Notes under the pieces: generated by a model
The model's input: the letters and a program-made list of their open reading frames with translations, nothing else
The model's database searches: none
What the model was told of the DNA's origin: nothing
DNA from: Thermoanaerobaculia bacterium
GTDB lineage: Bacteria > Acidobacteriota > Thermoanaerobaculia > Multivoradales > JAGPDF01
Reading direction: 5' to 3'
NCBI GenBank assembly: GCA_048500095.1
Contig: JASNYQ010000001.1
Span: 246,136 to 310,135, forward strand
Length of the DNA: 64,000 nucleotides
Shown here: piece after piece, positions 32,749 through 63,414 of the stretch
Layout of the letters: each line of letters starts with the position of its first letter
Position numbering within the stretch: position 1 is the first letter of the stretch
Made by a program: the position numbers and the translations under genes

Positions 32749-34554
32749 ATGCGCCCTCGTGCCCGAGCTTCGTTCGCCCTCCTCTCTCTCGCGCTGCTCC
32801 TTCCCGGCCTCGCCGTACCCCCCGCGGGCGCCCAGCTCGCCCGCCCGGAACGGGCGCGCCTGGAGCTCCTGGCCGGCCGCACCGCCCACCTGCCGGGCGA
32901 GGAGGCCCGCGTCGTGGCGCGCGTCACCGTCGACGAGGGCTGGCACATCCAGGCCCACCGACCGACCTTCGACTACCTGATCCCGACCCGGCTCGCCCTC
33001 GACCTGCCCTCCGGCTGGGTGGAGCGGGAGCTGCGCTACCCGGAGCCGAAGCTCTGGCGCTTCGCCTTCGAGGAGACCCCGCTCGCGGTCTACGAAGGCG
33101 AGGTCCGGATCGAAGCCCTGGTCGCCCTCCCCTCCGAGCTCCCGCTCGGGGCCGCGCGCCTCGCGGCCCGGCTCGAGTACCAGGCGTGCGACGATCGCCA
33201 GTGCCTGCCGCCCACCGAGGCGACCGCGACCCTCGAGCTGGTGATCGGCCCCGGAGGGACCGAGGTCGACCTCGGCCAGGTCGCCCCCGCCCAGGGCCGC
33301 GCGCGGAGCGGCCCCGGGTCGATCTGGGGCGCTCTCGGCATGCTCCTCGCCGGCCTGGCGGGGGGCCTGATCCTCAACGCCATGCCGTGCGTCCTCCCGA
33401 TCCTCTCGCTCAAGGCGTTCGGGCTGGTGAAGGCCGCCGGCCGCTCGCGCCGGAGCGTGACGCTCGCCGGGCTCGCCACCAGCGCCGGCATCCTGGTCTC
33501 TTTCTGGGCCCTCGCCGCGGCCGCCGTCGCGGCCCGGGCGGCAGGGGCCGCGGTCGGCTGGGGGGTCCAGTTCCAGGAGCCCGGCTTCGTGGCCTTCCTG
33601 CTCGCCGTCGTCGCCCTCTTCTCGCTCAACCTCTGGGGGCTCTTCGAAGTGCCGCTGCCCCGCCGCCTCGCCGCGGTCGCCGACTCGGGCGGGGAAGGAG
33701 TCGCCGGCCACTTCGTCTCCGGCCTCTTCGCGACCCTGATGGCGACCCCCTGCTCGGCGCCGTTCCTCGGCACCGCCATCTCGTTCGCGCTCGGCCAGCC
33801 GGCCCTCTGGGTGATGGCGATCTTCACCGCCGTGGGCACCGGCATGGCGCTCCCCTACCTGCTGCTCGCCGTCGCGCCCGGCGCGGCTCGATTCCTGCCC
33901 CGGCCCGGCGCCTGGATGGACACGCTCAAGGGCCTCATGGGCTTCCTCCTCGCCGGCGCCGCCGTCTGGCTGCTCTACGTGCTCACCGCGCAGATCAGCG
34001 CCGAGCGCCTCCTCGCCGTCGAGCTGGTCCTCCTCGCCCTCGGCCTCGCCGCCTGGCTCCACCACCGGGCGCGCCCCGAAGGTAGGGGGCGCCGCCTCGC
34101 CGCGGTCGGGATGCTCGCGACCACCCTCGGCCTGATCGTGCTGGCGGCCACCGCCGCCCCCGCCTCGTCGCGCGGCGGCGGCCCGGCCGCCCCGGCCCCG
34201 GGGCGCATCGCCTGGCAGCCGTTCGACCGCGCCGCCGCCGAGGGGCTCGCCGCCGAGGGGCGCCTGGTCTTCGTCGACGTCACCGCCGACTGGTGCCTGA
34301 CCTGCAAGGTCAACGAGCGGCTGGTGCTGAACACGGCCGAGGTGGCGGCCGCCTTCGAGCGGCACGGCGTGGTGCCGATGAAGGCGGACTGGACGAACCG
34401 CAACGCCGAGATCGGCGCCTTCCTGGCCGAGCACGGCAGGCACGGCATCCCGTTCTACCTGCTCTACCGGCCGGGGCGGCCGCCCCACGTCTTCGGCGAG
34501 CTGCTCACCCGCGACGGCGTCGTCGCGGTCCTCGCCGAGTCGGCGCCGCGCTGA
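32749..34554 (+). CDS. dsbD: Thiol:disulfide interchange protein DsbD (alpha, beta-TM and gamma-thioredoxin domains)
   Basis: N-terminal domain with YQACDDRQC, central TM domain with paired Cys (NAMPCVLP, ATPCSAPF), C-terminal WCLTC thioredoxin. Confidence 0.85.
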   Translation: MRPRARASFALLSLALLLPGLAVPPAGAQLARPERARLELLAGRTAHLPGEEARVVARVTVDEGWHIQAHRPTFDYLIPTRLALDLPSGWVERELRYPEPKLWRFAFEETPLAVYEGEVRIEALVALPSELPLGAARLAARLEYQACDDRQCLPPTEATATLELVIGPGGTEVDLGQVAPAQGRARSGPGSIWGALGMLLAGLAGGLILNAMPCVLPILSLKAFGLVKAAGRSRRSVTLAGLATSAGILVSFWALAAAAVAARAAGAAVGWGVQFQEPGFVAFLLAVVALFSLNLWGLFEVPLPRRLAAVADSGGEGVAGHFVSGLFATLMATPCSAPFLGTAISFALGQPALWVMAIFTAVGTGMALPYLLLAVAPGAARFLPRPGAWMDTLKGLMGFLLAGAAVWLLYVLTAQISAERLLAVELVLLALGLAAWLHHRARPEGRGRRLAAVGMLATTLGLIVLAATAAPASSRGGGPAAPAPGRIAWQPFDRAAAEGLAAEGRLVFVDVTADWCLTCKVNERLVLNTAEVAAAFERHGVVPMKADWTNRNAEIGAFLAEHGRHGIPFYLLYRPGRPPHVFGELLTRDGVVAVLAESAPR

Positions 34555-49534: not shown

Positions 49535-50410
49535 CTAGCGGCCGAGCGCCTTCGCGACGGTGGAGCCGAGGTCGGCCGGCGACTCGCAGACGTGGATGCC
49601 CGCCGCGGCGAGCGCCTCCATCTTCTCCTTCGCCGTCCCCTTGCCGCCGGCGATGATCGCCCCGGCGTGGCCCATCCGGCGTCCCGGCGGCGCGGTGCGC
49701 CCGGCGATGAAGCCGACCACCGGCCGGTCGAAGTGCGCCTCGACCCAGGCCGCGGCCTCCTCCTCGGCGGTGCCGCCGATCTCGCCGATCATCACCACCG
49801 CCTCGGTCTCCGGGTCGCCCCGGAAGGCGGAGAGGACGTCGATGAAGTTCGTGCCGTTGATCGGGTCGCCGCCGATCCCCACGCAGGTCGACTGCCCGAG
49901 GCCGAGGTTGGTGAGCTGCCAGACCGCCTCGTAGGTGAGCGTGCCCGAGCGGGAGACGACACCCACGCGGCCCGGGCGGTGGATGTGGCCGGGCATGATC
50001 CCGATCTTCCCCTTGCCCGGCGAGATGATGCCGGGGCAGTTGGGGCCGATCAGGCGCGTCGGGTGGTCGCGCAGGAACGCCTTCACCTTCAGCATGTCGG
50101 CCACCGGGATCCCCTCGGTGATCGCCACCGTGAGCTCGATGCCGGCCCCGGCCGCCTCCATGATCGCGTCGGCTGCGAAAGGCGGCGGCACGAAGACCAT
50201 GCTGGCGTTGGCGCCGGTGGCGGCGCGCGCCTCGGCCACCGAGTCGAAGACCGGGATCCCCTCCACCACCTCGCCCCCCTTGCCCGGGGTGACGCCGGCC
50301 ACCACCTGGGTGCCGTAGTCGCGGCAGCCGAGGGCGTGGAACTTCCCCTCCTTGCCGGTGATCCCCTGCACCACGAGGCGGGTCTGCTCGTTGAGCCAGA
50401 TGGCCATCAC
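49535..50410 (-). CDS. sucD: Succinyl-CoA synthetase alpha subunit
   Basis: [25 protein letters not shown]..., active-site SRSGTLTYE, ...MGHAGAII... ATGA overlap with the sucC stop. Confidence 0.9.
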
Positions 50411-51576
50411 GCACCTCCCCGAACCGCCGCGACGACCTTCTGCGCCGCGTCGGCCATCGTCTCGGCGACGATGAAGTGGAACTCGCTCTCGCGCAGGATC
50501 GCGCGGCCCTGCTCGACGTTGGTGCCCTCGAGGCGGACGACGACCGGCATCGCGACGCCGCCGAGGCTGCGCAGCGCCTCGACCACGCCGTTGGCGATCC
50601 GGTCGGTGCGGGCGATGCCGCCGAAGATGTTGATCAGCACCGCCTTGACGCTCGCGTCGGAGACCAGGATGCGGAAGGCGTTCGCCACCGCCTCCTGCGA
50701 AGCCGAGCCGCCGACGTCGAGGAAGTTGGCCGGCTCGGAGCCGTAGAGCTTGATGATGTCCATGGTGGCCATCGCCAGGCCCGCGCCGTTGACCATGCAG
50801 CCGATCTCGCCGTCGAGCTTGATGTAGTTGAGGTCGAATTTCGACGCCTCGACCTCCAGCGGGTTCTCCTCGGCGACGTCGCGCATCGCGACCACGTCGC
50901 GGTGGCGGAAGAGGGCGTTGTCGTCGAAGTTCATCTTCGCGTCGAGGGCGAGCACGTCGCCCTGCGCGGTGATCATGAGCGGGTTGATCTCGGCCAGCGA
51001 GGCGTCGGTCTCGAGGTAGGCCTTGACCAGCGCCGCCACCAGCTTGCCGGCCTTGTTGGCGGTGTCGCCCTCGAGGCCCAGCCGCTTGGCGACGAGGCGC
51101 CCCTGGAACGGCAGCAGGCCGAGGTGCGGGTCGACGTGGACGCGGGTGATGGCGTCGGGGTCGCGCTCGGCGACCACCTCGATCTCCATCCCGCCGGCGG
51201 CCGAGGCGATGATCACCGGCTTGGCCGCGGCGCGGTCGAGGGTGACCGCGAGGTAGAGCTCGCGGGCGATCTCGAGCGCCTCTTCGATCAGCACCTTCTG
51301 GACCTTCTGCCCCTCCGGGCCCGTCTGGTGGGTGACGAGCTGCATGCCGAGGATCTGGCCGGCCAGCGCCTCGGCCTCCGCCGGGTCCTTGGCGAGCTTC
51401 ACGCCCCCGCCCTTGCCGCGCCCGCCGGCGTGGATCTGGGCCTTGACGACGACGCGCCCGCCCAGCTCCTCGGCGATGGCGCGCGCCTCGCCCGCGTCGG
51501 CGGTCACCCGCCCGCGCGGCGTGGCGACACCGTAGCGGCGCAGGATCTCCTTCGCCTGGTACTCGTGAATCTTCAA
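50407..51576 (-). CDS. sucC: Succinyl-CoA synthetase beta subunit
   Basis: TTG start ([17 protein letters not shown]) after AAGGAGGG. ATP-grasp and CoA-ligase domains ([15 protein letters not shown]). TTAGACT -10-like element ~80 nt upstream. Confidence 0.9.
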
Positions 51577-51697
51577 GATTCCCTCCTTCCGGGATCCGCA
51601 GGTGGGCCGGGGCCGAAAGCCGCGCCCCCGGCGCGGCGCCCCACGAACGAGGAGTCTAACGGACCGCCGCGGGCCGCGAAAAGGGCCCCAGGGCAGA

Positions 51698-52048
51698 TCA
51701 GCTCCCCGGAGGTCCAGAGGGGAGAAGAGAGGCGAGCATCGGCCGGAGCCTCGGGATCTCGACCGAGCACACGTCCCAGACGAGGTCGAAGTCGACATCG
51801 AGGTAGTCGTGCACGATCTTGTGGCGCATCCCTACGATCTCCGCCCAGGGGACCTCCGGGTGACCTGCCCGGTACCCGGAGGAGACCCGTCGCGCCGCCT
51901 CCCCGAGAGTCTGGACCAGGTGGGTCAGGGCGAGGCGGAGGTCCTCGTCGGCGTCGAAATCCTCCCGCTCGAGGCGCACGGCCCGCGCGAGGATCCGGTC
52001 GCAGAGATCGAGCATCTGCGCGACGTAGACGAGGTCGTCATGCCGCAT
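51698..52048 (-). CDS. hepT: HepT-like RNase toxin (DUF86; type VII TA system)
   Basis: Rx4HxY motif (GMRHKIVHDY). Confidence 0.75.
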   Translation of the reverse strand: MRHDDLVYVAQMLDLCDRILARAVRLEREDFDADEDLRLALTHLVQTLGEAARRVSSGYRAGHPEVPWAEIVGMRHKIVHDYLDVDFDLVWDVCSVEIPRLRPMLASLLPSGPPGS

Positions 52049-52337
52049 ACTGGATCACCGCCTCGGAGAGGACCCGGTCGCGCAGGTGCCGGTTGAGGTA
52101 CTTGCGCGAGACCAGGTCGACCCGCCTCCCCCCGAAGAGCGCGGAGAGCTCGCGCTCCAGCGCGAAGACCCGGAACCCCAGGACCGTGCCCGGCTCGAAC
52201 TCGACGAGCAGGTCCACATCGCTCTCCGGCCCGAAGTCGTCGCGCACGGCGGAGCCGAACAGCGCGAGACTGCGAATCCCCCACCGCACACACAGGTCGC
52301 GGAGCGCATCTCGGTCGATTGGAATCTGCACGGACAT
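52038..52337 (-). CDS. mntA: MntA-like minimal nucleotidyltransferase antitoxin
   Basis: LFGSAVRDDFGPESDVDLLVEF (GS...DxD NTase motif). 11-nt overlap with hepT. Confidence 0.8.
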   Translation of the reverse strand: MSVQIPIDRDALRDLCVRWGIRSLALFGSAVRDDFGPESDVDLLVEFEPGTVLGFRVFALERELSALFGGRRVDLVSRKYLNRHLRDRVLSEAVIQYAA

Positions 52338-52653
52338 CGCGGCTCCCGCCGGCGAAACCGGCTCGCCGGCATGCTACCGCGCCTCACGCTCCCCGCGCCG
52401 GTCCGGGCGGGGGCGAACCGGCCACCTTCGCTCGCCTCGTCCATTTCCCGGATGGGTTGCAGCCGCCCTCGCCGTCGCAACGAGCTCCGTCAGGGCACCC
52501 GGAGCGGACGGTCCCGGTGCCCACCGGCCGCCGCCCCCGTGAGGGGAAGGCCCACCTCGGCCCTCTCCCCGGATCCGATGCGGCTACCCCGCGGAGATCA
52601 CCCAAGCCGCCCCGGCCGGTGGCTCGGCACGAAGGAACCGATAGCGAGAGCGT

Positions 52654-52688
52654 GCGCGGCGACTGTGACCTCGCAAGGCAGAACCCGA
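52654..52688. repeat. Imperfect direct repeat copy 1 (GCGCGGCGACTGTGACCTCGCAAGGCAGAACCCGA)
   Basis: 29/35 identical to 53496-53530. Together the two copies flank the 52760-53463 two-gene cassette. Confidence 0.5.
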
Positions 52689-52744
52689 GACCAGCTCGGC
52701 CTCCTTTGCGGGACCACCATGGCCTCGACTCGCCCAACGGCGCT

Positions 52745-52759
52745 GGCTAGACTCCGGCC
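52745..52759 (+). promoter_or_regulatory. GGCTAGACTCCGGCC element immediately before the GTG at 52760
   Basis: Identical 16-mer to the one upstream of the beta-lactamase-family gene (13914-13929, minus strand). Confidence 0.45.
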
Positions 52760-53248
52760 GTGAACGGCCCCCGCGCCCTCGTCTTCCGGGCCCTCGCCAC
52801 GGCGGGCGTGCGCTATCTCGTCGTCGGCGGCGTGGCCGTCGTGCTGCACGGCCACCTGCGGGCCACGGTCGACCTCGACCTCGTCCTCGACCTCGCGCCG
52901 GAGAACACCGCGCGGGCGCTCGACGCCCTCGTCGCGGCCGGCTTCCGGCCGGTGGCGCCGGTGCCCGTCGGCGAGTTCGCCGACCCGGCGGCGCGCGAGC
53001 GCTGGGCGCGCGAGAGGCAGATGGTCGTCTTCTCGCTCTGGACCGACGCCGACCCCACCTTCAAGGTCGACCTGTTCGTCGAGGAGCCGTTCGACTTCGC
53101 GGTCGCCTGGCAGCGCGCCGCGGCCGTCGAGCTCGCCGGCGTCGAGGTGCGCGTCGTCTCCCTCTCCGACCTGCTCGCGATGAAGCGGCGCGCCGGCCGG
53201 CCGCAGGACCTCGCCGACGTGGCCGCGCTCGGGGAGATCGCGCGGTGA
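52760..53248 (+). CDS. Minimal nucleotidyltransferase-fold protein (Pol-beta superfamily)
   Basis: GTG start. YLVVGGVAVVLHGHLRATVDLDLVLD (hG[GS]...DxD). Confidence 0.5.
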   Translation: MNGPRALVFRALATAGVRYLVVGGVAVVLHGHLRATVDLDLVLDLAPENTARALDALVAAGFRPVAPVPVGEFADPAARERWARERQMVVFSLWTDADPTFKVDLFVEEPFDFAVAWQRAAAVELAGVEVRVVSLSDLLAMKRRAGRPQDLADVAALGEIAR

Positions 53249-53463
53249 AGCCCGACCTCGCCCGGCACGTCGCGGCCCTGCCGCCGCGGGCTCTGACCGC
53301 CGACGAGAACCGCGCCCTCGAGCGCGCGATCGGCCTTTCGCTCTCGCCGCAGGAGCGGCTCGACTGGCTGGAACGGACCCTCGCCGAGCTCGCGGCGCTC
53401 CGCGGCCTCGCGGCCGCGAGCAACAGCGTCGGGCGCGAGACGAGCCCCCACACCCGCCCGTAG
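53245..53463 (+). CDS. Small helical hypothetical protein translationally coupled to the NTase
   Basis: GTGA overlap with the upstream stop. 72 aa. No family. Confidence 0.3.
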   Translation: MKPDLARHVAALPPRALTADENRALERAIGLSLSPQERLDWLERTLAELAALRGLAAASNSVGRETSPHTRP

Positions 53464-53495
53464 CGACCGGGATCGTCCTCAGACCGCGTGAGACA

Positions 53496-53530
53496 GCGCG
53501 GTCACTGTGATCTGGCGAGGCGGAACCCGA
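53496..53530. repeat. Imperfect direct repeat copy 2 (GCGCGGTCACTGTGATCTGGCGAGGCGGAACCCGA), overlapping the 3' end of the FGE gene
   Basis: Encodes ...GFRLARSQ* of the FGE protein on the minus strand. Copy 1 would encode GFCLARSQ in a non-genic context. Confidence 0.5.
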
Positions 53531-54821
53531 TGTAGTTGTCCCGGGAGGTCGGGGTGCCGTCGTAGCGATACGCCGAGCGGCAGAAGCGCGCGTAGCGGTA
53601 CCAGTAGCCGCCCCGCAGGACGCGGTACGGGCCGCTGGCCGGTCCCGTCGGGTCCACCGCCGGTCCCGCCGGGTAGTCATCTTCGTACCAGTCCTGCACC
53701 CACTCGAGCAGGTTCCCGTGCATGTCGTACAGCCCGAACGGGTTCGCCCCCTTCGACCCCACCGGGTGGCTGTTCGCGTTGTAATTGCCGCACCACCACA
53801 TGTAGAGGTCGTGCGCTCCGCACGCCACGCAGTCGTCGTTACACTCCAGCACGTCCCCGTGCGAGAAGCGCGTCTGCGTCCCTCCCCGCGCCGCCCGCTC
53901 CCACTCCGCCTCCGTCGGCAACCGGAAGAGGGTCGTTCCGAGGTGGGTGTTCAAGAGATCGAGGAAGCCGCCCGGGCCCGCAACGTCGTCCCACGAAACG
54001 CAGTAGGCCGGGTAGTCCGGCCCAATGCCCCAGGGGACGCCACTGGTGCAGGTGTACGACCACGGCCCCATCAGGGCCTCCCACTGCGCCTGCGTCACCT
54101 CCGTCTTCCCCATCCAGTACGGCTGCGTGAGCATCACGTCGTGCAGGGTCTCGTTCGAGTTTCTCCCCCTCTCGCTCTCCGGCGAGCCCATCTGGAAGGT
54201 CCCGGCGGGGATGAGGACCAGGGTGAGCGGCACATCGCCCGGGAGGAGGATGGTCATCTCCTCGGCCGGCCCGGTGGACCAGCGACACCCGGAGCCCTGC
54301 TCGAAACCGTCGGCGAAGTAGCCCGGTGGGCCTGCATAGACGCCGTCGAGCCAGATCGAGGTCGAGTTGGAGGTGACTGCGGGCCCGATGCTGCACGACG
54401 CCATTCCCGCCGGGATCGCGTACTCCAGGCGGTGCCGGTTCCAGCTCTTCCGGCCGCCCAGCGCCTCGGCGAGCGGCACCAAGGGTGTCGGCGCTCCCGA
54501 ACAGTCGGGTACCGCGTAGCAGGCGACCGCCGAGGCTTCGGACCAGTCGCCCGGATTCGGGAAGCTCTTCGACGAGTACTCCACGAAGAACGGCTCGCCG
54601 GCCTGCACCGGCACGCACGGCGACTGGCTCAGGGAGCTTCCGGCCGCCTCCCCCGAACCCGACCGCGAGCACCCGTCGCGGTCGAAGGGACTCCAGCTGA
54701 GGGCCTGCGTCCACCCTGACGTGTCCACGTCGAACTCCGGGTTCACGATCCGGTTCTGGGCCTCCGCCCCGGCCAGCGGCAGCGAGGCGACGACGAGGCC
54801 GATCCTCAGCGCTTTGCGCAT
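53502..54821 (-). CDS. Formylglycine-generating-enzyme (FGE/SUMF1) family protein with a secreted Cys-rich N-terminal domain
   Basis: Signal peptide. C-terminal FGE-sulfatase domain blocks (RLPTEAEWERAARGG, HGNLLEWVQDWY, RVLRGGYW, YIGFRLAR). Confidence 0.8.
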   Translation of the reverse strand: MRKALRIGLVVASLPLAGAEAQNRIVNPEFDVDTSGWTQALSWSPFDRDGCSRSGSGEAAGSSLSQSPCVPVQAGEPFFVEYSSKSFPNPGDWSEASAVACYAVPDCSGAPTPLVPLAEALGGRKSWNRHRLEYAIPAGMASCSIGPAVTSNSTSIWLDGVYAGPPGYFADGFEQGSGCRWSTGPAEEMTILLPGDVPLTLVLIPAGTFQMGSPESERGRNSNETLHDVMLTQPYWMGKTEVTQAQWEALMGPWSYTCTSGVPWGIGPDYPAYCVSWDDVAGPGGFLDLLNTHLGTTLFRLPTEAEWERAARGGTQTRFSHGDVLECNDDCVACGAHDLYMWWCGNYNANSHPVGSKGANPFGLYDMHGNLLEWVQDWYEDDYPAGPAVDPTGPASGPYRVLRGGYWYRYARFCRSAYRYDGTPTSRDNYIGFRLARSQ

Positions 54822-55099
54822 CGTTCCCCTCCCGAGACCCCCTCGGAGGCGTCAGTCCGACAATTCGGATTGTACGACTCCTATCCACTCCGAGCGAGAC
54901 CACCCGGTCCCCGGTGCATCAGGAACCGCGGCGGTCTCTCCATGGCTTCCGTTCGAGGCCGGGAGCGGCAGCGCCCCGCGCAGCGCGGAACCCGGCGCCG
55001 CACCCCGCTGAGACCGGCAGCGCTCGCCGGATCGCCCTCGGGAGGTGCGGGCCCGGGACCCGCGAGGCCGGCGGCAGCCCCGGGAGAGACGCCGACCCC

Positions 55100-57523
55100 T
55101 TACGGCAGCCGCAGGACGAGGAGGGTGAGGTCGTCCTCGCGGGGGGCGTCGCCGATGTGGGCGGCGAGGTCGGCGAGGAGGCCGTCGCGGGCGGCGGGGG
55201 CGGAGCGGCCGGCCTGGCGCGCGAGGCTCTGCTCGAAACGCTCGAAGCCGTAGAGGTCGTCGCTGCCGTCGGGGCGGGCCTCGACCACGCCGTCGCTGAA
55301 GAGCACGACGAGGTCGCCGCGCTCGAGGCGAGCCAGGCGCGAACGGACCTCGATCTCGGCGCGCACGCCGAGCGGGTAGGAGATCGACTCGAACGCCTCC
55401 ACCCGGCCGTCGCCGCCCACGCGGTACGGGAAGAGATGGCCGGCGCTGGCGAACTGGAGCTCGCGGCGGACGGGGTCGAGCAACGCGTAACAGAGGGTCG
55501 CGAGCAGCCGCTTGCGGGCGCTCTGGAAGACCATCCGGTTCAGCGTGAGGAAGACTGCCTCGACCCGCGGGTCGAAGGTGACCTGGACGGCGAGCGCCGA
55601 CTTCGCCATCGACATCACGAGGCCGCTCGAGACGCCGTGGCCGGCGACGTCCCCCACCGCCACCGCGAGCCGCCCGTCCTCGAGCGCCAGCGCGTCGTAG
55701 AAGTCGCCGCCCACCTCGGTCGCCGGGCGGTAGGCGTGGGCGATCTCCACGCCGCAGAGGGCCGGCGGCAGCTCGGGGAGGATCGAGGACTGGATGTTCC
55801 GGGCCGTCTCGAGCTCGACCCGCTGCCGCTCGCGCTCCGCGATCCGCCGCACGTGTGGCGGCACGTCGTCCCAGCGGTAGACGTACTCCTCGTTCGAGAG
55901 CAGGTGGCGCAGGCCCAGCAGCAGGGGGAGGCCGCAGGTCAGCAGCGCGAGCGCCCCCTGCAGCTCCAGGGCCGGGTGCCCGGAGCGCACCAGCGGCAGA
56001 GCGGCGAGCGCGACGCGCGCCGTGTAGCTCGCCACCAGCGTCGAGAGCAGGTCGGTGCGCAGGAAGACCGCCACCAGCACGCCCGACCAGAGGAGCCAGA
56101 AAGGCACCGACCAGGCGAACGGCAGCAGCGCCACCGGCGGGAAGAAGATCACGGCCGTGACGGCGACGGTCACCGCCGCCGCGCCGAGCCGGCCCAGGCG
56201 AGGGGTGAGCGTCGAGAGCAGGAAGAGCCGCCCGAAGAGCTCGAAGAAGAGGGTGAACGGGATCGCGAAGAGGATCAGAGCCACCCCGGCCCAGCGCGCG
56301 TCGTCCCACCAGGGGCCGACCTGGAACGCCCCCGGGGCGGTGATGCCGTGGCGCTGCAGCGGGAACTGGAGCAGCAGCGTGGCGGCCGCGAGGAGCAGGC
56401 CGATGGCGAGGCCGCGCAGGCCCGCGCGCGGCACCGTGGCGTTCTCCCACCGGCGCTGCCAGAGAGCGTCGAAGGCGGCGAGCTTCGCCCCCCAGCGCTC
56501 GCGGCAGAACGACTCCCCCACCGCCCAGCTCACCGCGGTGGTGAGCGCCAGCGGCAGGAAGAAGACGAGGACCAGCTGCACCCCCCAGAACCAGGTCACC
56601 TGCTCGCGGCTCAGCGCCCCGAACATGAAGCCCTGGGTCGACGGCCGCGCCGTCGCGAGCACCAGCAGCAGGCTCGCCGCCAGCGATGCGACGAAGATCT
56701 GGAGCGCCCGTCCCACCCCCACCTCGCCGGCGTGGTAGCGGCGCACGAAGATGGCGCCGGCGAGCGGCACGATGAGGAAGATCGCGAAGACGTTCAGGTT
56801 GCCGAGCAGGGTCGGGAGGCGCATCTCCTCTTCCCGCACGGCGCGCTGTGGGTCCTCGATCCAGGGGGAGAAGCCGGCGAGCCGGTCGCCCGCGAACGCC
56901 ACCTCGACGCCGTAGCGGACCCCCTCGCCGAGCAGCCGCTCGCGCAGGGGGAGGCGCACCGCGGTGTCGGTGCGGGAGGCGAGCTGCTCGACCCGCACCT
57001 CCGGCTCGTCGAAGAGCGCGAGGTCGAAGCCCTGTGCACCGAGGAACTCGGCGGCCCGGCGCCGGGCCTCGTCGCGCTCGAGGCCGGTCCCCGGGTCCTC
57101 GCGCGCCAGCCGGAGCCGCAGCTCGTAGACCTCGCCGTCCCCTCCCACCCGCGCGCGGTACGACCACTGGTCCGGCGCCCGGCCGGGGGCGTAGACGACC
57201 ACCTCCCAGGAGAGGACCTGGCGGCCGAGCCAGCCGCGCCCCCCGCGCGCCGCCCCGCTCGCCTCGCCGGCGAGGGCGAGGCGCCGCTCCATCATCGGGT
57301 CGTCGTCGAGGCGGCTCACCACGTACGGGTCGGAAGGGAGGGTGCCGAGATCGCGAAGCCGCTCGAGGGCGATCTCGGTGGCCTCCTCCCGGCTCACCTC
57401 CCAGCGCTCGGGCAGGAACGGGTAGGCGCGCGGGAACGCCCACGGCAGCAGGAGCGCACCGGCCGCGGCGGCGGTCAGCCAGAAGAGGGTCCAGGCCGCA
57501 CGGCGGCGCTCGGGCAGATTCAT
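55100..57523 (-). CDS. Large polytopic-membrane PP2C-family (SpoIIE-like) serine phosphatase
   Basis: Periplasmic N-domain, ~8-10 TM, C-terminal PP2C (ARNIQSSILP...ATEVGGDFYD...VGDVAGHGVSSGLVMS...VLFSDGV). Confidence 0.75.
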   Translation of the reverse strand: MNLPERRRAAWTLFWLTAAAAGALLLPWAFPRAYPFLPERWEVSREEATEIALERLRDLGTLPSDPYVVSRLDDDPMMERRLALAGEASGAARGGRGWLGRQVLSWEVVVYAPGRAPDQWSYRARVGGDGEVYELRLRLAREDPGTGLERDEARRRAAEFLGAQGFDLALFDEPEVRVEQLASRTDTAVRLPLRERLLGEGVRYGVEVAFAGDRLAGFSPWIEDPQRAVREEEMRLPTLLGNLNVFAIFLIVPLAGAIFVRRYHAGEVGVGRALQIFVASLAASLLLVLATARPSTQGFMFGALSREQVTWFWGVQLVLVFFLPLALTTAVSWAVGESFCRERWGAKLAAFDALWQRRWENATVPRAGLRGLAIGLLLAAATLLLQFPLQRHGITAPGAFQVGPWWDDARWAGVALILFAIPFTLFFELFGRLFLLSTLTPRLGRLGAAAVTVAVTAVIFFPPVALLPFAWSVPFWLLWSGVLVAVFLRTDLLSTLVASYTARVALAALPLVRSGHPALELQGALALLTCGLPLLLGLRHLLSNEEYVYRWDDVPPHVRRIAERERQRVELETARNIQSSILPELPPALCGVEIAHAYRPATEVGGDFYDALALEDGRLAVAVGDVAGHGVSSGLVMSMAKSALAVQVTFDPRVEAVFLTLNRMVFQSARKRLLATLCYALLDPVRRELQFASAGHLFPYRVGGDGRVEAFESISYPLGVRAEIEVRSRLARLERGDLVVLFSDGVVEARPDGSDDLYGFERFEQSLARQAGRSAPAARDGLLADLAAHIGDAPREDDLTLLVLRLP

Positions 57524-57626
57524 GTCTCTTCCTACGCAGCGCCCGGTCCCGGGGTTCTCGGGAGCGCTCACGAGGGGCTCGGGAAACGGGCGGACCGAAA
57601 GCTAGCACGCCGCCCGCCGGGGGCGT

Positions 57627-63288: not shown

Positions 63289-63414
63289 GGCCCCGGGAGG
63301 CTATCAGAGGGCCTCCGCTGTGACCTCCCAACTTGCGGCCCGGGGCCGTTTTCTCTACGCTTCGCGAAACCGGCGGGCATCGGCCCCCCGGGTGCCGACA
63401 GGAGGATCTCCACC

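Follow-up and report, generated by a model that had tools for sequence, protein, structure and literature searches.

The 64,000-nucleotide (nt) stretch of Thermoanaerobaculia DNA analyzed here (hereafter the window; positions 246,136 to 310,135 of contig JASNYQ010000001.1, assembly GCA_048500095.1) contains, between positions 52338 and 53530, a nucleotidyltransferase (NTase) gene and a small partner gene that are bracketed by two copies of an imperfect 35-nt direct repeat, one of which is the 3′ end of a gene of the FGE-sulfatase family. Comparison with related contigs shows that the other copy, judged from its sequence, is the dead 3′ stub of a second FGE copy and that the two-gene cassette lies between direct FGE copies. 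The interpretation to which we lean, with moderate confidence, is that the cassette sits between FGE duplicates, that the body of one of them was lost, and that the gene pair, a putative toxin-antitoxin module, arrived by insertion with duplication of its target.

The flanking repeat and its counterparts in related contigs

The two copies of the repeat, at 52654-52688 (copy 1) and 53496-53530 (copy 2), are identical at 29 of 35 positions, a match for which 100 shuffles gave an expectation of zero, and the ungapped similarity widens to 45 nt at 78% identity (52644-52688 against 53486-53530). In an all-against-all scan of the window, they formed the sole direct pair of at least 29/35 at a distance of 36-1500 nt, and none of the 171 pseudo-cassettes placed elsewhere in the window was bracketed by a pair of that quality. 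Because the blastn E-value of the pair is modest (0.004), the case for the repeat depends mainly on this test of uniqueness and on the fact that relatives conserve copy 1; 23 contigs of the same species have the stub in identical form. The boundary on the cassette side is sharp at both copies, and the insert between them, 797 nt long (52689-53485), holds both genes and the promoter.

Both copies are read on the minus strand. Copy 2, in its extended form at 53486-53530, is the functional 3′ end of the FGE gene (53502-54821) and comprises coding nucleotides 53505-53530 (GFRLARSQ), the TGA stop at 53502-53504 and 16 nt of 3′ flank; its codons are GGG TTC CGC CTC GCC AGA TCA CAG TGA (GFRLARSQ*). 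Copy 1 (52644-52688) comprises 26 former coding nt (52663-52688, GFCLARSQ), a former stop at 52660-52662 that is now TCG, and ~16 nt that were once 3′ flank; here the codons are GGG TTC TGC CTT GCG AGG TCA CAG TCG, with no stop in the same frame. Of the four differences within the coding part, three are synonymous changes at third positions of the FGE frame, a pattern indicating that both copies once encoded protein. The preliminary description of this locus had placed the two 35-nt copies as we find them, and had read the second as the end of the FGE gene and the first as FGE codons out of context, all of which is borne out by the present analysis. A possible third partial copy, which it put at 63313-63326, actually lies at 63318-63331, matches at 13 of 14 positions without extension and is at chance level (0.29 such matches expected); with two copies only, the family of short repeat elements considered as an alternative falls away. 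A separate match was noted between 52387-52423, in the spacer next to copy 1, and 33274-33310, on the opposite strand and inside a long coding region (38 nt at 84%; blastn E = 3e-4, better than the repeat pair); this is probably a chance similarity of GC-rich sequence.

The former identity of copy 1 emerges from related contigs, to which we refer, as to the other loci compared, by L numbers. In L014 (GCA_035464435.1), which has the gene order of the window at 88% overall nucleotide identity, copy 1 reads GFCLARSQ followed by an in-frame TAG. In L013, whose FGE protein is 76% identical to that of the window, a second, full-length FGE gene sits at the position of copy 1, and its last codons align with copy 1. 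In the orientation of the FGE genes, the order in L013 is an FGE 3′ end, the same spacer as in the window, remnants of the small open reading frame (ORF) and of the NTase 3′ end, the FGE upstream region, the complete FGE gene (479-1762) and a 126-nt spacer, after which the sequence is 88% identical to window positions 52427-52219 (the MntA upstream region and the MntA start). In L011, an intact NTase gene, 88% identical to that of the window, is divergent from an FGE 5′ end (MRRALWIGLVAAVLPLAGAEA, where the window has MRKALRIGLVVASLPLAGAEA); homology to the window starts only at 52710, the right flank matches nothing in the window, and this allele stays incomplete. Finally, two synonymous sites (GCA, TCA) place the stub with the end of the second FGE copy of L013 and not with the FGE ends that precede the cassette. 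Taken together, the TAG in L014, the full second gene in L013, the FGE 5′ end in L011 and the grouping at synonymous sites identify copy 1 as a dead FGE stub. The 35-nt repeat most likely represents the worn remainder of an FGE duplication that was once longer, as opposed to a 35-nt attachment site, because L013 has a full second FGE gene in the place of copy 1 and L011 has an FGE 5′ end abutting the NTase promoter.

The alleles differ in content but can be aligned piece by piece. Allele A, found in the window, L014, L008 and all same-species contigs, has the order FGE, spacer, small ORF, NTase, stub and MntA; allele B (L013) has an FGE 3′ end, the same spacer, cassette remnants, the FGE upstream region, a full FGE gene and MntA; and allele C (L011) has a flank of no match, the cassette, the FGE upstream region and FGE. 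Allele A could be derived from a B-like ancestor by one deletion of ~1.45 kb, whereas the reverse would need extra steps; under this derivation, most of the second FGE copy would have been deleted in the window lineage, with the gene still whole in L013. Further alleles were sought through FGE cluster P0121, MntA homologues and MntA cluster P0241, and the same-species contigs all had the same arrangement; beyond them, the next MntA relative is only 78% identical. A SpoIIE-anchored scan of genome contigs gave only distant matches in other phyla and no orthologous locus. Decay of the modules is seen in L013 (254-330 and 1979-2173), where the NTase is cut to its last ~56 nt, apparently through a deletion between microhomologies resembling GGCCGGCCGG, 89 nt are missing from the small ORF and MntA is truncated after GPESD; both modules are decaying in that contig, and the second FGE gene is intact.

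The 422-nt spacer between MntA and the NTase gene (52338-52759), previously described as a stretch of ~420 bp without a gene, behaves as such. Compared with L014, it is ~92% identical (92.5%), and its 34 substitutions are spread evenly over the codon phases (12/11/11), as against 4/4/13 in the NTase, 1/0/6 in MntA and 41/38/65 in FGE; its divergence equals that of NTase third positions, ~8%. The flat phases and this level of divergence show the spacer to be DNA of apparently neutral evolution that comprises what once lay downstream of the lost FGE copy, together with the region upstream of MntA and the cassette promoter; its part 52338-52643 is non-coding and consists of the first two. The longest ORF in the spacer (52384-52737, minus strand) was rejected as a gene, having no Pfam match and being broken by stops in L014. 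A structured RNA was likewise rejected: the Rfam search of 52338-52759 gave no match at E ≤ 1, the folding energy is ordinary (z-scores of 0.05 and −0.95), and the substitutions look neutral. Scars of rearrangement around an addiction-type cassette can account for all three oddities of the locus, the repeat, the 420 bp without an ORF and the FGE codons out of context, so that no new RNA or regulatory element is needed.

The nucleotidyltransferase and its partner

The NTase gene (52760-53248, plus strand) encodes a minimal DUF6036/AbiEii-like nucleotidyltransferase of 162 amino acids (aa), a MenT1-like putative toxin. The gene of the small helical partner (53245-53463, plus strand; 72 aa), a putative antitoxin, overlaps it in a GTGA, as had been described. 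Classification by profile hidden Markov models (HMMs), suggested earlier as a check, assigns the NTase to AbiEii (PF08843; 33.1 bits against a cut-off of 22.5, E = 7.3e-8, with only profile positions 10-168 of 238 matched) and to DUF6036 (PF19502; 32.3 bits against a cut-off of 23.6, E = 1e-7), and it also passes the Pfam cut-off for DUF2204. At least 1990 homologues were found at E ≤ 1e-3, those with a named source coming from Acidobacteriota, Thermoanaerobaculales or Gemmatimonas, and PF19502 is present in most of the 120 best. A profile built from 37 homologues retrieved a single relative of solved structure, M. tuberculosis MenT1 (8an4; E = 1.4e-5). The fold agrees: with the AlphaFold (AF2) model of the NTase (pLDDT 88.8), the five best Foldseek matches are MenT1 structures (TM 0.58-0.70, 22-24% identity), followed by TM1012, LnuA and ANT(2'')-Ia. 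Residues T39, D41, K137 and D152 are conserved NTase-fold residues of MenT1, and T39 is the phospho-acceptor (PMC11375011); they align with T36, D38, K142 and D153 of the NTase, all four of which are invariant or nearly so among the 37 homologues. The motif I/II core G[GS]...R-x-[ST]-x-D-h-D is present (VGGVAVVLHGHLRATVDLDLV), with T36, D38 and D40 aligned to T39, D41 and D43 of MenT1, and so is motif III, in which LLAMK142RRAGRPQDLAD153 aligns with LIAMK...RPQDRSD. Motif IV, specific to DUF1814, is C-terminal; the protein of the window ends a few residues past motif III, and the Pfam match stops at profile position 168 of 238, but MenT1 is short too (196 aa).

The partner recurs with the NTase throughout the family. 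We collected 80 metagenome loci with NTase homologues of 48-63% identity, 72 of which have enough downstream sequence to judge; in 71 of these 72, a match to the partner-family HMM lies directly downstream on the same strand, often with the partner gene overlapping the NTase stop by 4 nt. On this comparative evidence, the small ORF is a real gene. Members of the family are 60-90 aa long and share the conserved core GLxLTPAERLxWLEE; the C-terminal tail varies across the family. With low confidence, the partner is predicted to form three helices and a disordered tail, and its single-sequence AF2 model (pLDDT 69) is too poor for a fold search.

A putative cassette promoter is located at 52725-52753 on the plus strand, with TCGACT (52725-52730) and TAGACT (52748-52753) separated by a 17-nt spacer; the promoter consensus scan did not call these hexamers, which match at 8 of 12 positions. 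The −10-like TAGACT ends 6 nt before the GTG start of the NTase, a spacing too short for a Shine-Dalgarno sequence. Of 80 sequences (the window and 79 family loci), 57 have a TANNNT hexamer in the 20 nt that precede the start codon, mostly ending 5-7 nt before it. A −10 box in this position implies a leaderless mRNA, and the cassette operon, like its family, is probably expressed in this form.

The core homology block of the mobile module spans 52710-53448 (plus strand): L011 matches these 739 nt without gaps at ~90% identity, its flanks on both sides being unlike those in the window. By their flanking proteins, the 80 loci form 59 groups, and some of them adjoin VapBC or HigBA pairs, in arrays. 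The comparison of contexts shows the NTase and its partner to be an apparently self-contained module of ~0.75-0.8 kb that belongs to a large family with many unrelated surroundings. From the tight pairing, the putative promoter of its own and the patchy, context-free distribution, we infer that it functions as a toxin-antitoxin addiction module. The earlier suggestion of a toxin-antitoxin-like pair agrees with the occurrence of the partner in 71 of 72 loci and with the many contexts, both of which point to a horizontally mobile module.

The pair resembles MenAT1 of M. tuberculosis (MenT1/MenA1, Rv0078A/Rv0078B) in several respects: the minimal Pol-beta-type NTase fold, with MenT1 as the best solved match; the core residues T39, D41, K137 and D152, kept as T36, D38, K142 and D153; and a partner that is short and not a kinase. 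The cognate partner of MenT1 is likewise a short protein of ~70 aa that is not a kinase (PMC10435456). The two systems differ in that the NTases are only 22-24% identical, with Pfam placing that of the window equally well under DUF6036, and in length (162 aa against 196 aa); moreover, the partner of the window NTase, encoded downstream and translationally coupled instead of upstream, has no detectable similarity to MenA1. In MenT and AbiEii (DUF1814) systems, the antitoxin gene (AbiEi/COG5340, MenA) lies directly upstream, a place that is occupied by non-coding DNA in the window. Because the partner is not upstream and is unrelated to known antitoxins, formal membership in MenT fails, and the cassette is best filed as a putative DUF6036-type, toxin-first variant of the MenT kind. 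By analogy with MenT toxins, the NTase would add nucleotides to the 3′ ends of tRNAs and thereby block translation, and the partner would neutralize it by binding, possibly via triggered self-phosphorylation of the conserved Thr36.

Bracketing duplications at other loci and the origin of the cassette

Among the loci of the module family, 55 have at least 250 nt on both sides of the module. When 400 nt upstream was compared with 400 nt downstream, a direct match of at least 31/35 was found in five of the 55, against a background range of 20-26/35; with wider flanks, seven other loci proved to be bracketed. No bracketing was seen in 194 controls (0/171 in the window, 0/23 in metagenome loci). 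The repeats at the seven loci are each a different, locus-specific sequence with sharp edges. They measure 261 nt in L019, 45 nt in L088, 84 nt in L027, next to HigBA genes, and 70-80 nt in L080, where they are intergenic. In L031, the repeat (at least 185 nt) is part of the methylmalonyl-CoA mutase 3′ region, so that a complete gene, the cassette and a 3′ fragment follow one another as in the window; in L032, three copies of 175-200 nt start with a tmRNA-3′-like sequence; and in L049, a repeat of 59-73 nt is accompanied by a second repeat pair that brackets the neighboring VapBC. The second cassette of L032 encodes a distant NTase homologue (hhalign probability 96.5%). Given bracketing at seven loci and at 0/194 controls, we infer that the module behaves like a mobile addiction cassette inserted with target duplication, and it is on account of this test that the stub in the window is not read as a simple deletion remnant. 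The preliminary description had proposed a small inserted cassette with a duplicated target or attachment sequence. The insertion part of this proposal is strengthened by the bracketing FGE duplication and the seven other loci, whereas a simple 35-nt attachment or target site is disfavored by L013 and L011. It had also named a simple local duplication, if that explained the FGE remnant, as grounds for refutation; what such a duplication weakens is the attachment-site version.

Several features of these loci bear on the type of element involved. No integrase gene was noticed among the ORFs read on five repeat-bracketed loci, and no attC-type R''/R' pairs (RYYYAAC-N35-130-GTTRRRY) were found on either strand in 51001-55000 of the window or at the seven repeat-bracketed loci. 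Full tRNA genes were ruled out at the repeats of the bracketed loci, the only related signal being a weak tmRNA-3′ match in L040. An ORF downstream of the module in L019, which looked FGE-like by eye, was dismissed for want of a Pfam match. In L032 (1-2284), L040 (817-2625), and also L042 and L043, repeats of ~200 nt begin with tmRNA-3′-like TGGAGGCGGTGGGAATCGAACCC (Rfam tmRNA 18.7 bits, against a threshold of 47). They recur two or three times, ~1-1.6 kb apart, with small cassettes between them, two of which consist of an NTase and a small ORF, and without an integrase; these arrays look like the tandem accretion of miniature integrative cassettes. In L049 (2839-4561), the repeat pairs are interleaved: that of 59-73 nt brackets the NTase module, and one of 103 nt, which starts inside the 3′ end of the partner gene, brackets an adjacent VapC(PIN)/MazE-type pair, suggesting that neighboring toxin-antitoxin cassettes were added there one after another.

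Among described phenomena, the closest appears to be that by which restriction-modification units insert with long target duplication (Nobusato 2000; Furuta, Abe and Kobayashi 2010, PMC2853133). Such units are flanked by target duplications of 46-420 bp that may overlap a gene 3′ end (PMC2853133; PMC3874152). The likeness lies in a selfish two-gene addiction unit without a mobility gene of its own and in local direct duplications whose lengths vary between events, and the cassette locus shows several of the features by which Furuta et al. 2010 recognize such insertions: a complete unit inside an insert of <20 kb, a duplication of >30 bp and no mobility gene. The difference is that the window holds a putative toxin-antitoxin pair, not a restriction-modification unit, and that its duplication may have spanned a whole 1.4-kb gene, of which 35-45 nt now remain at 78-83% identity. 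The cassette also shares with cis-mobilizable elements (CIMEs) its boundaries of direct repeats that hold the 3′ end of a target gene. CIMEs are integrase-less, att-flanked elements that accrete in tandem at tRNA and tmRNA genes. In L032/L040, the repeats start with tmRNA-3′-like sequence and are present as three tandem copies separated by NTase cassettes; however, in the window it is a protein-coding gene that serves as the target, the likeness to tmRNA is weak (18.7 bits against 47), and no integrase was seen on the fetched loci. Integron gene cassettes are similar in being small, with one or two genes, often toxin-antitoxin pairs, and in standing in arrays with similar repeats. They differ in that the repeats described here are locus-specific and in part coding and that the window cassette, unlike most integron cassettes, has a promoter of its own; an integron attC reading was rejected because the R''/R' core-site pairs were not found in the window locus or the seven bracketed loci. 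The HepT/MntA pair (type VII) next to the cassette is another two-gene module with an NTase and is also an indel relative to L012, but its NTase belongs to PF01909 and is the antitoxin, the toxin being the HEPN RNase; the cassette partner is not a HEPN protein.

Under the interpretation that we favor, the cassette would have arrived by an insertion that duplicated its target sequence, either by Campbell-type recombination of a circle with FGE homology or by an insertion that duplicates a long target. Survivorship may then have preserved the result: the killing of cells that lose the module would protect the repeat-cassette-repeat structure from collapse. Direct repeats that enclose ordinary DNA are lost through recombination, but such a structure would persist because its collapse around an addiction module kills the cell.

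Several observations weigh against this scenario. A clean empty site was not found: at least 23 same-species contigs all carry the insert, and the alignment with related loci, proposed as a check in the preliminary description, yielded the full second FGE gene (L013) and the stub with its stop (L014) but no cassette-free site with a single repeat copy. L012 has one visible FGE 3′ end followed by sucC, and its contig begins at the FGE start codon, so that a cassette upstream is possible and L012 offers a clean empty site for HepT/MntA only. The copies differ at 6-8 of 35 positions, so either the duplication is old or the copies were never identical; the flank of the stub is weakly similar to the L013 flank (19/34, against 16/34 for copy 2, counted by eye); and the joint between stub and cassette falls within ~20 nt of the FGE-upstream joint in L011, a coincidence under pure deletion. 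The two-FGE arrangement could itself be secondary, the product of unequal crossover of stub (A-type) and L011-type (C) alleles. Only seven of ~55 other loci have bracketing repeats, and the tmRNA-3′-like starts in L032 and L040 suggest integrase-type att sites, as opposed to one common mechanism. As for function, the NTase is shorter than the AbiEii Pfam model (positions 10-168 of 238 matched), PADLOC and NCBIfam gave no match for NTase or partner, the partner family has no Pfam or PDB relative and no similarity to any known antitoxin, and the gene order, with the partner downstream, is opposite to that of the MenT1 pair, in which MenA1 comes first, the toxicity of the NTase being itself presumed.

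These points can be set against other histories of the locus. The duplication and the movement of the module might be unlinked: pre-existing tandem FGE paralogues, a cassette that landed between them and a deletion of ~1.45 kb that left 26 coding nt, in which case the repeat would be uninformative on movement. This account, which we consider somewhat unlikely, draws on the full second FGE gene with its own upstream region in L013 and L011, on FGE-domain genes being numerous (7944 matches) and fast-evolving (81% in L014, against 92-96% in the flanks), on the grouping of the stub with second-copy ends at two synonymous sites and on the single step that leads from gene to stub. It leaves unexplained, however, why locus-specific duplications occur at seven other loci and in none of 194 controls, and it demands both that the cassette sit exactly at the boundary of two duplicated units and that the deletion end within ~20 nt of the cassette edge. 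The 35-45-nt repeat could instead be the original att or target duplication at the FGE 3′ end, made by a recombinase acting in trans (a CIME-like integrase-less element) or by illegitimate insertion, with the two-FGE arrangement arising later by unequal recombination. A complete gene, a cassette and a 3′ fragment make the classical att pattern, seen also in L031 (the mutase 3′ part) and L032/L040 (tmRNA-3′-like), the cassette-side edge of both copies is sharp, and there are restriction-modification precedents with 46-bp duplications that overlap gene 3′ ends. Nevertheless, we hold such a primary short duplication to be decidedly improbable: the gene tables list no integrase or transposase within ~5 kb on either side (action in trans being possible), the copies differ at 17-23% of positions, the stub has synonymous states of the second-copy type, and to derive the L013 arrangement from the stub allele requires one more allele and one more recombination step.

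Chance similarity, or a dispersed family of short repeats resembling repetitive extragenic palindromes (REP) or miniature inverted-repeat transposable elements (MITE), seems very remote as an explanation. The E-value of the pair is only 0.004, the unrelated 38-nt match scores better, and GFR[LC]AR is a conserved motif with which the FGE domain ends, so that a likeness to copy 2 would be expected of any FGE relic; yet this is the only such pair in 64 kb, other copies are absent from the window, the third one is at chance level, and copy 1 is kept with an in-frame stop in L014. On a separate axis, concerned with function, the NTase could be a small-molecule (antibiotic-type) or protein-modifying enzyme, or an MntA-like antitoxin, with the partner as a regulator or chaperone. 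LnuA, ANT(2'')-Ia and TM1012 are the next fold matches, there is a weak Pfam match to Aminoglyc_resit below the cut-off, the gene order is the reverse of MenA1-MenT1, and PADLOC gave no match. We think a non-toxin role unlikely on the whole, since sequence profile and fold both put MenT1 first, the core of Thr, Asp, Lys and Asp is kept, phospho-acceptor Thr included, the coupling to a tiny partner is strict, the patchy and context-free distribution is typical of addiction modules, and the module stands in arrays with VapBC and HigBA. The insertion of a toxin-antitoxin module with target duplication, followed by loss of the FGE body, thus remains the explanation that we prefer.

The locus can be regarded as an instructive example of selfish gene pairs settling in chromosomes, not as a new kind of system. 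It draws attention to a large and little-studied protein pair, with at least 1990 NTase homologues and a partner in 71 of 72 loci; the literature searched yielded nothing specific on DUF6036 or on target duplication around toxin-antitoxin pairs. The presence of the MenT1 core residues, including the self-phosphorylation threonine, beside a different partner in the opposite order offers a test of how general the control of MenT is, and the recurrent bracketing without a mobility gene provides a data set on how toxin-antitoxin and restriction-modification pairs move. More tentatively, the DUF6036 NTase and its helical partner may possibly represent a widespread toxin-first branch of MenT-type tRNA-nucleotidyltransferase systems, with a new antitoxin family and sometimes in tandem arrays bounded by tmRNA-3′-like repeats. 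If true, the DUF6036 module would be the toxin-antitoxin counterpart of a mobility by long target duplication that has so far been described for restriction-modification units.

Neighboring genes and recombination

The window has a G+C content of 73.9%. Its sequence is also found in contig JAHDVN010000093 of the metagenome-assembled genome GCA_023384635.1 (NCBI label Thermoanaerobaculia), and a 99.5%-identical copy (L095) lies on a 4.09-Mb contig of GCA_027493395.1. The genes around the cassette are on the minus strand: sucC (50407-51576, the start following the gene call on the identical contig, with the longest ORF reaching 51798), HepT (51698-52048) and MntA (52038-52337) to the left, and the intact FGE gene (53502-54821) and a SpoIIE phosphatase gene (55100-57571) to the right. 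The FGE product, of 439 aa, has a signal peptide, an N-terminal domain and an FGE domain, and the Pfam FGE-sulfatase match extends to residue 437. No integrase or transposase is among the genes called within ~5 kb on either side of the cassette.

The HepT/MntA pair is a separate indel, absent from L012, where 140 nt (1336-1475) stand in place of window positions 51670-53499. In that contig, these 140 nt link the FGE gene to the region upstream of sucC, which matches the window at 97% identity from 51669 downwards. The MntA-like protein (52038-52337) matches the PADLOC candidate-system models PDC-S09 (E = 1e-29); MntA and HepT both score under their NCBIfam cut-offs, indicating that the pair is a divergent member of its family.

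The locus is, on the pattern of its substitutions, recombinationally active, as seen from the FGE gene being 81% identical to that of L014 where the flanks are 92-96% identical, and from the clustering of differences from L095. The FGE gene is only ~80-81% identical at the nucleotide level between the window and its relatives L014, L012 and L013, with changes at all codon positions, whereas the flanks are 92-97% identical; the N-terminal part in L014 cannot be aligned with the window. This divergence suggests diversifying selection or repeated recombination among FGE paralogues. Between the window and L095, 24 of 43 differences fall in 52885-53643 (NTase, small ORF and FGE 3′ end), four of them inside copy 2, and the 1.2 kb to the left of this tract shows zero differences; it seems to have been imported by recombination, the tract being sharply set off in this way. 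Gene conversion between copy 1 and copy 2 was considered for the four differences in the 35 nt and rejected, since polarization with other relatives resolves them as ordinary substitutions in both lineages. A 1-nt indel at 53443, near the end of the small ORF, makes its product 72 aa long in the window, against 81 aa in the remaining contigs of the species (L095-L108), where the longer version stops 10 nt short of the FGE stop.

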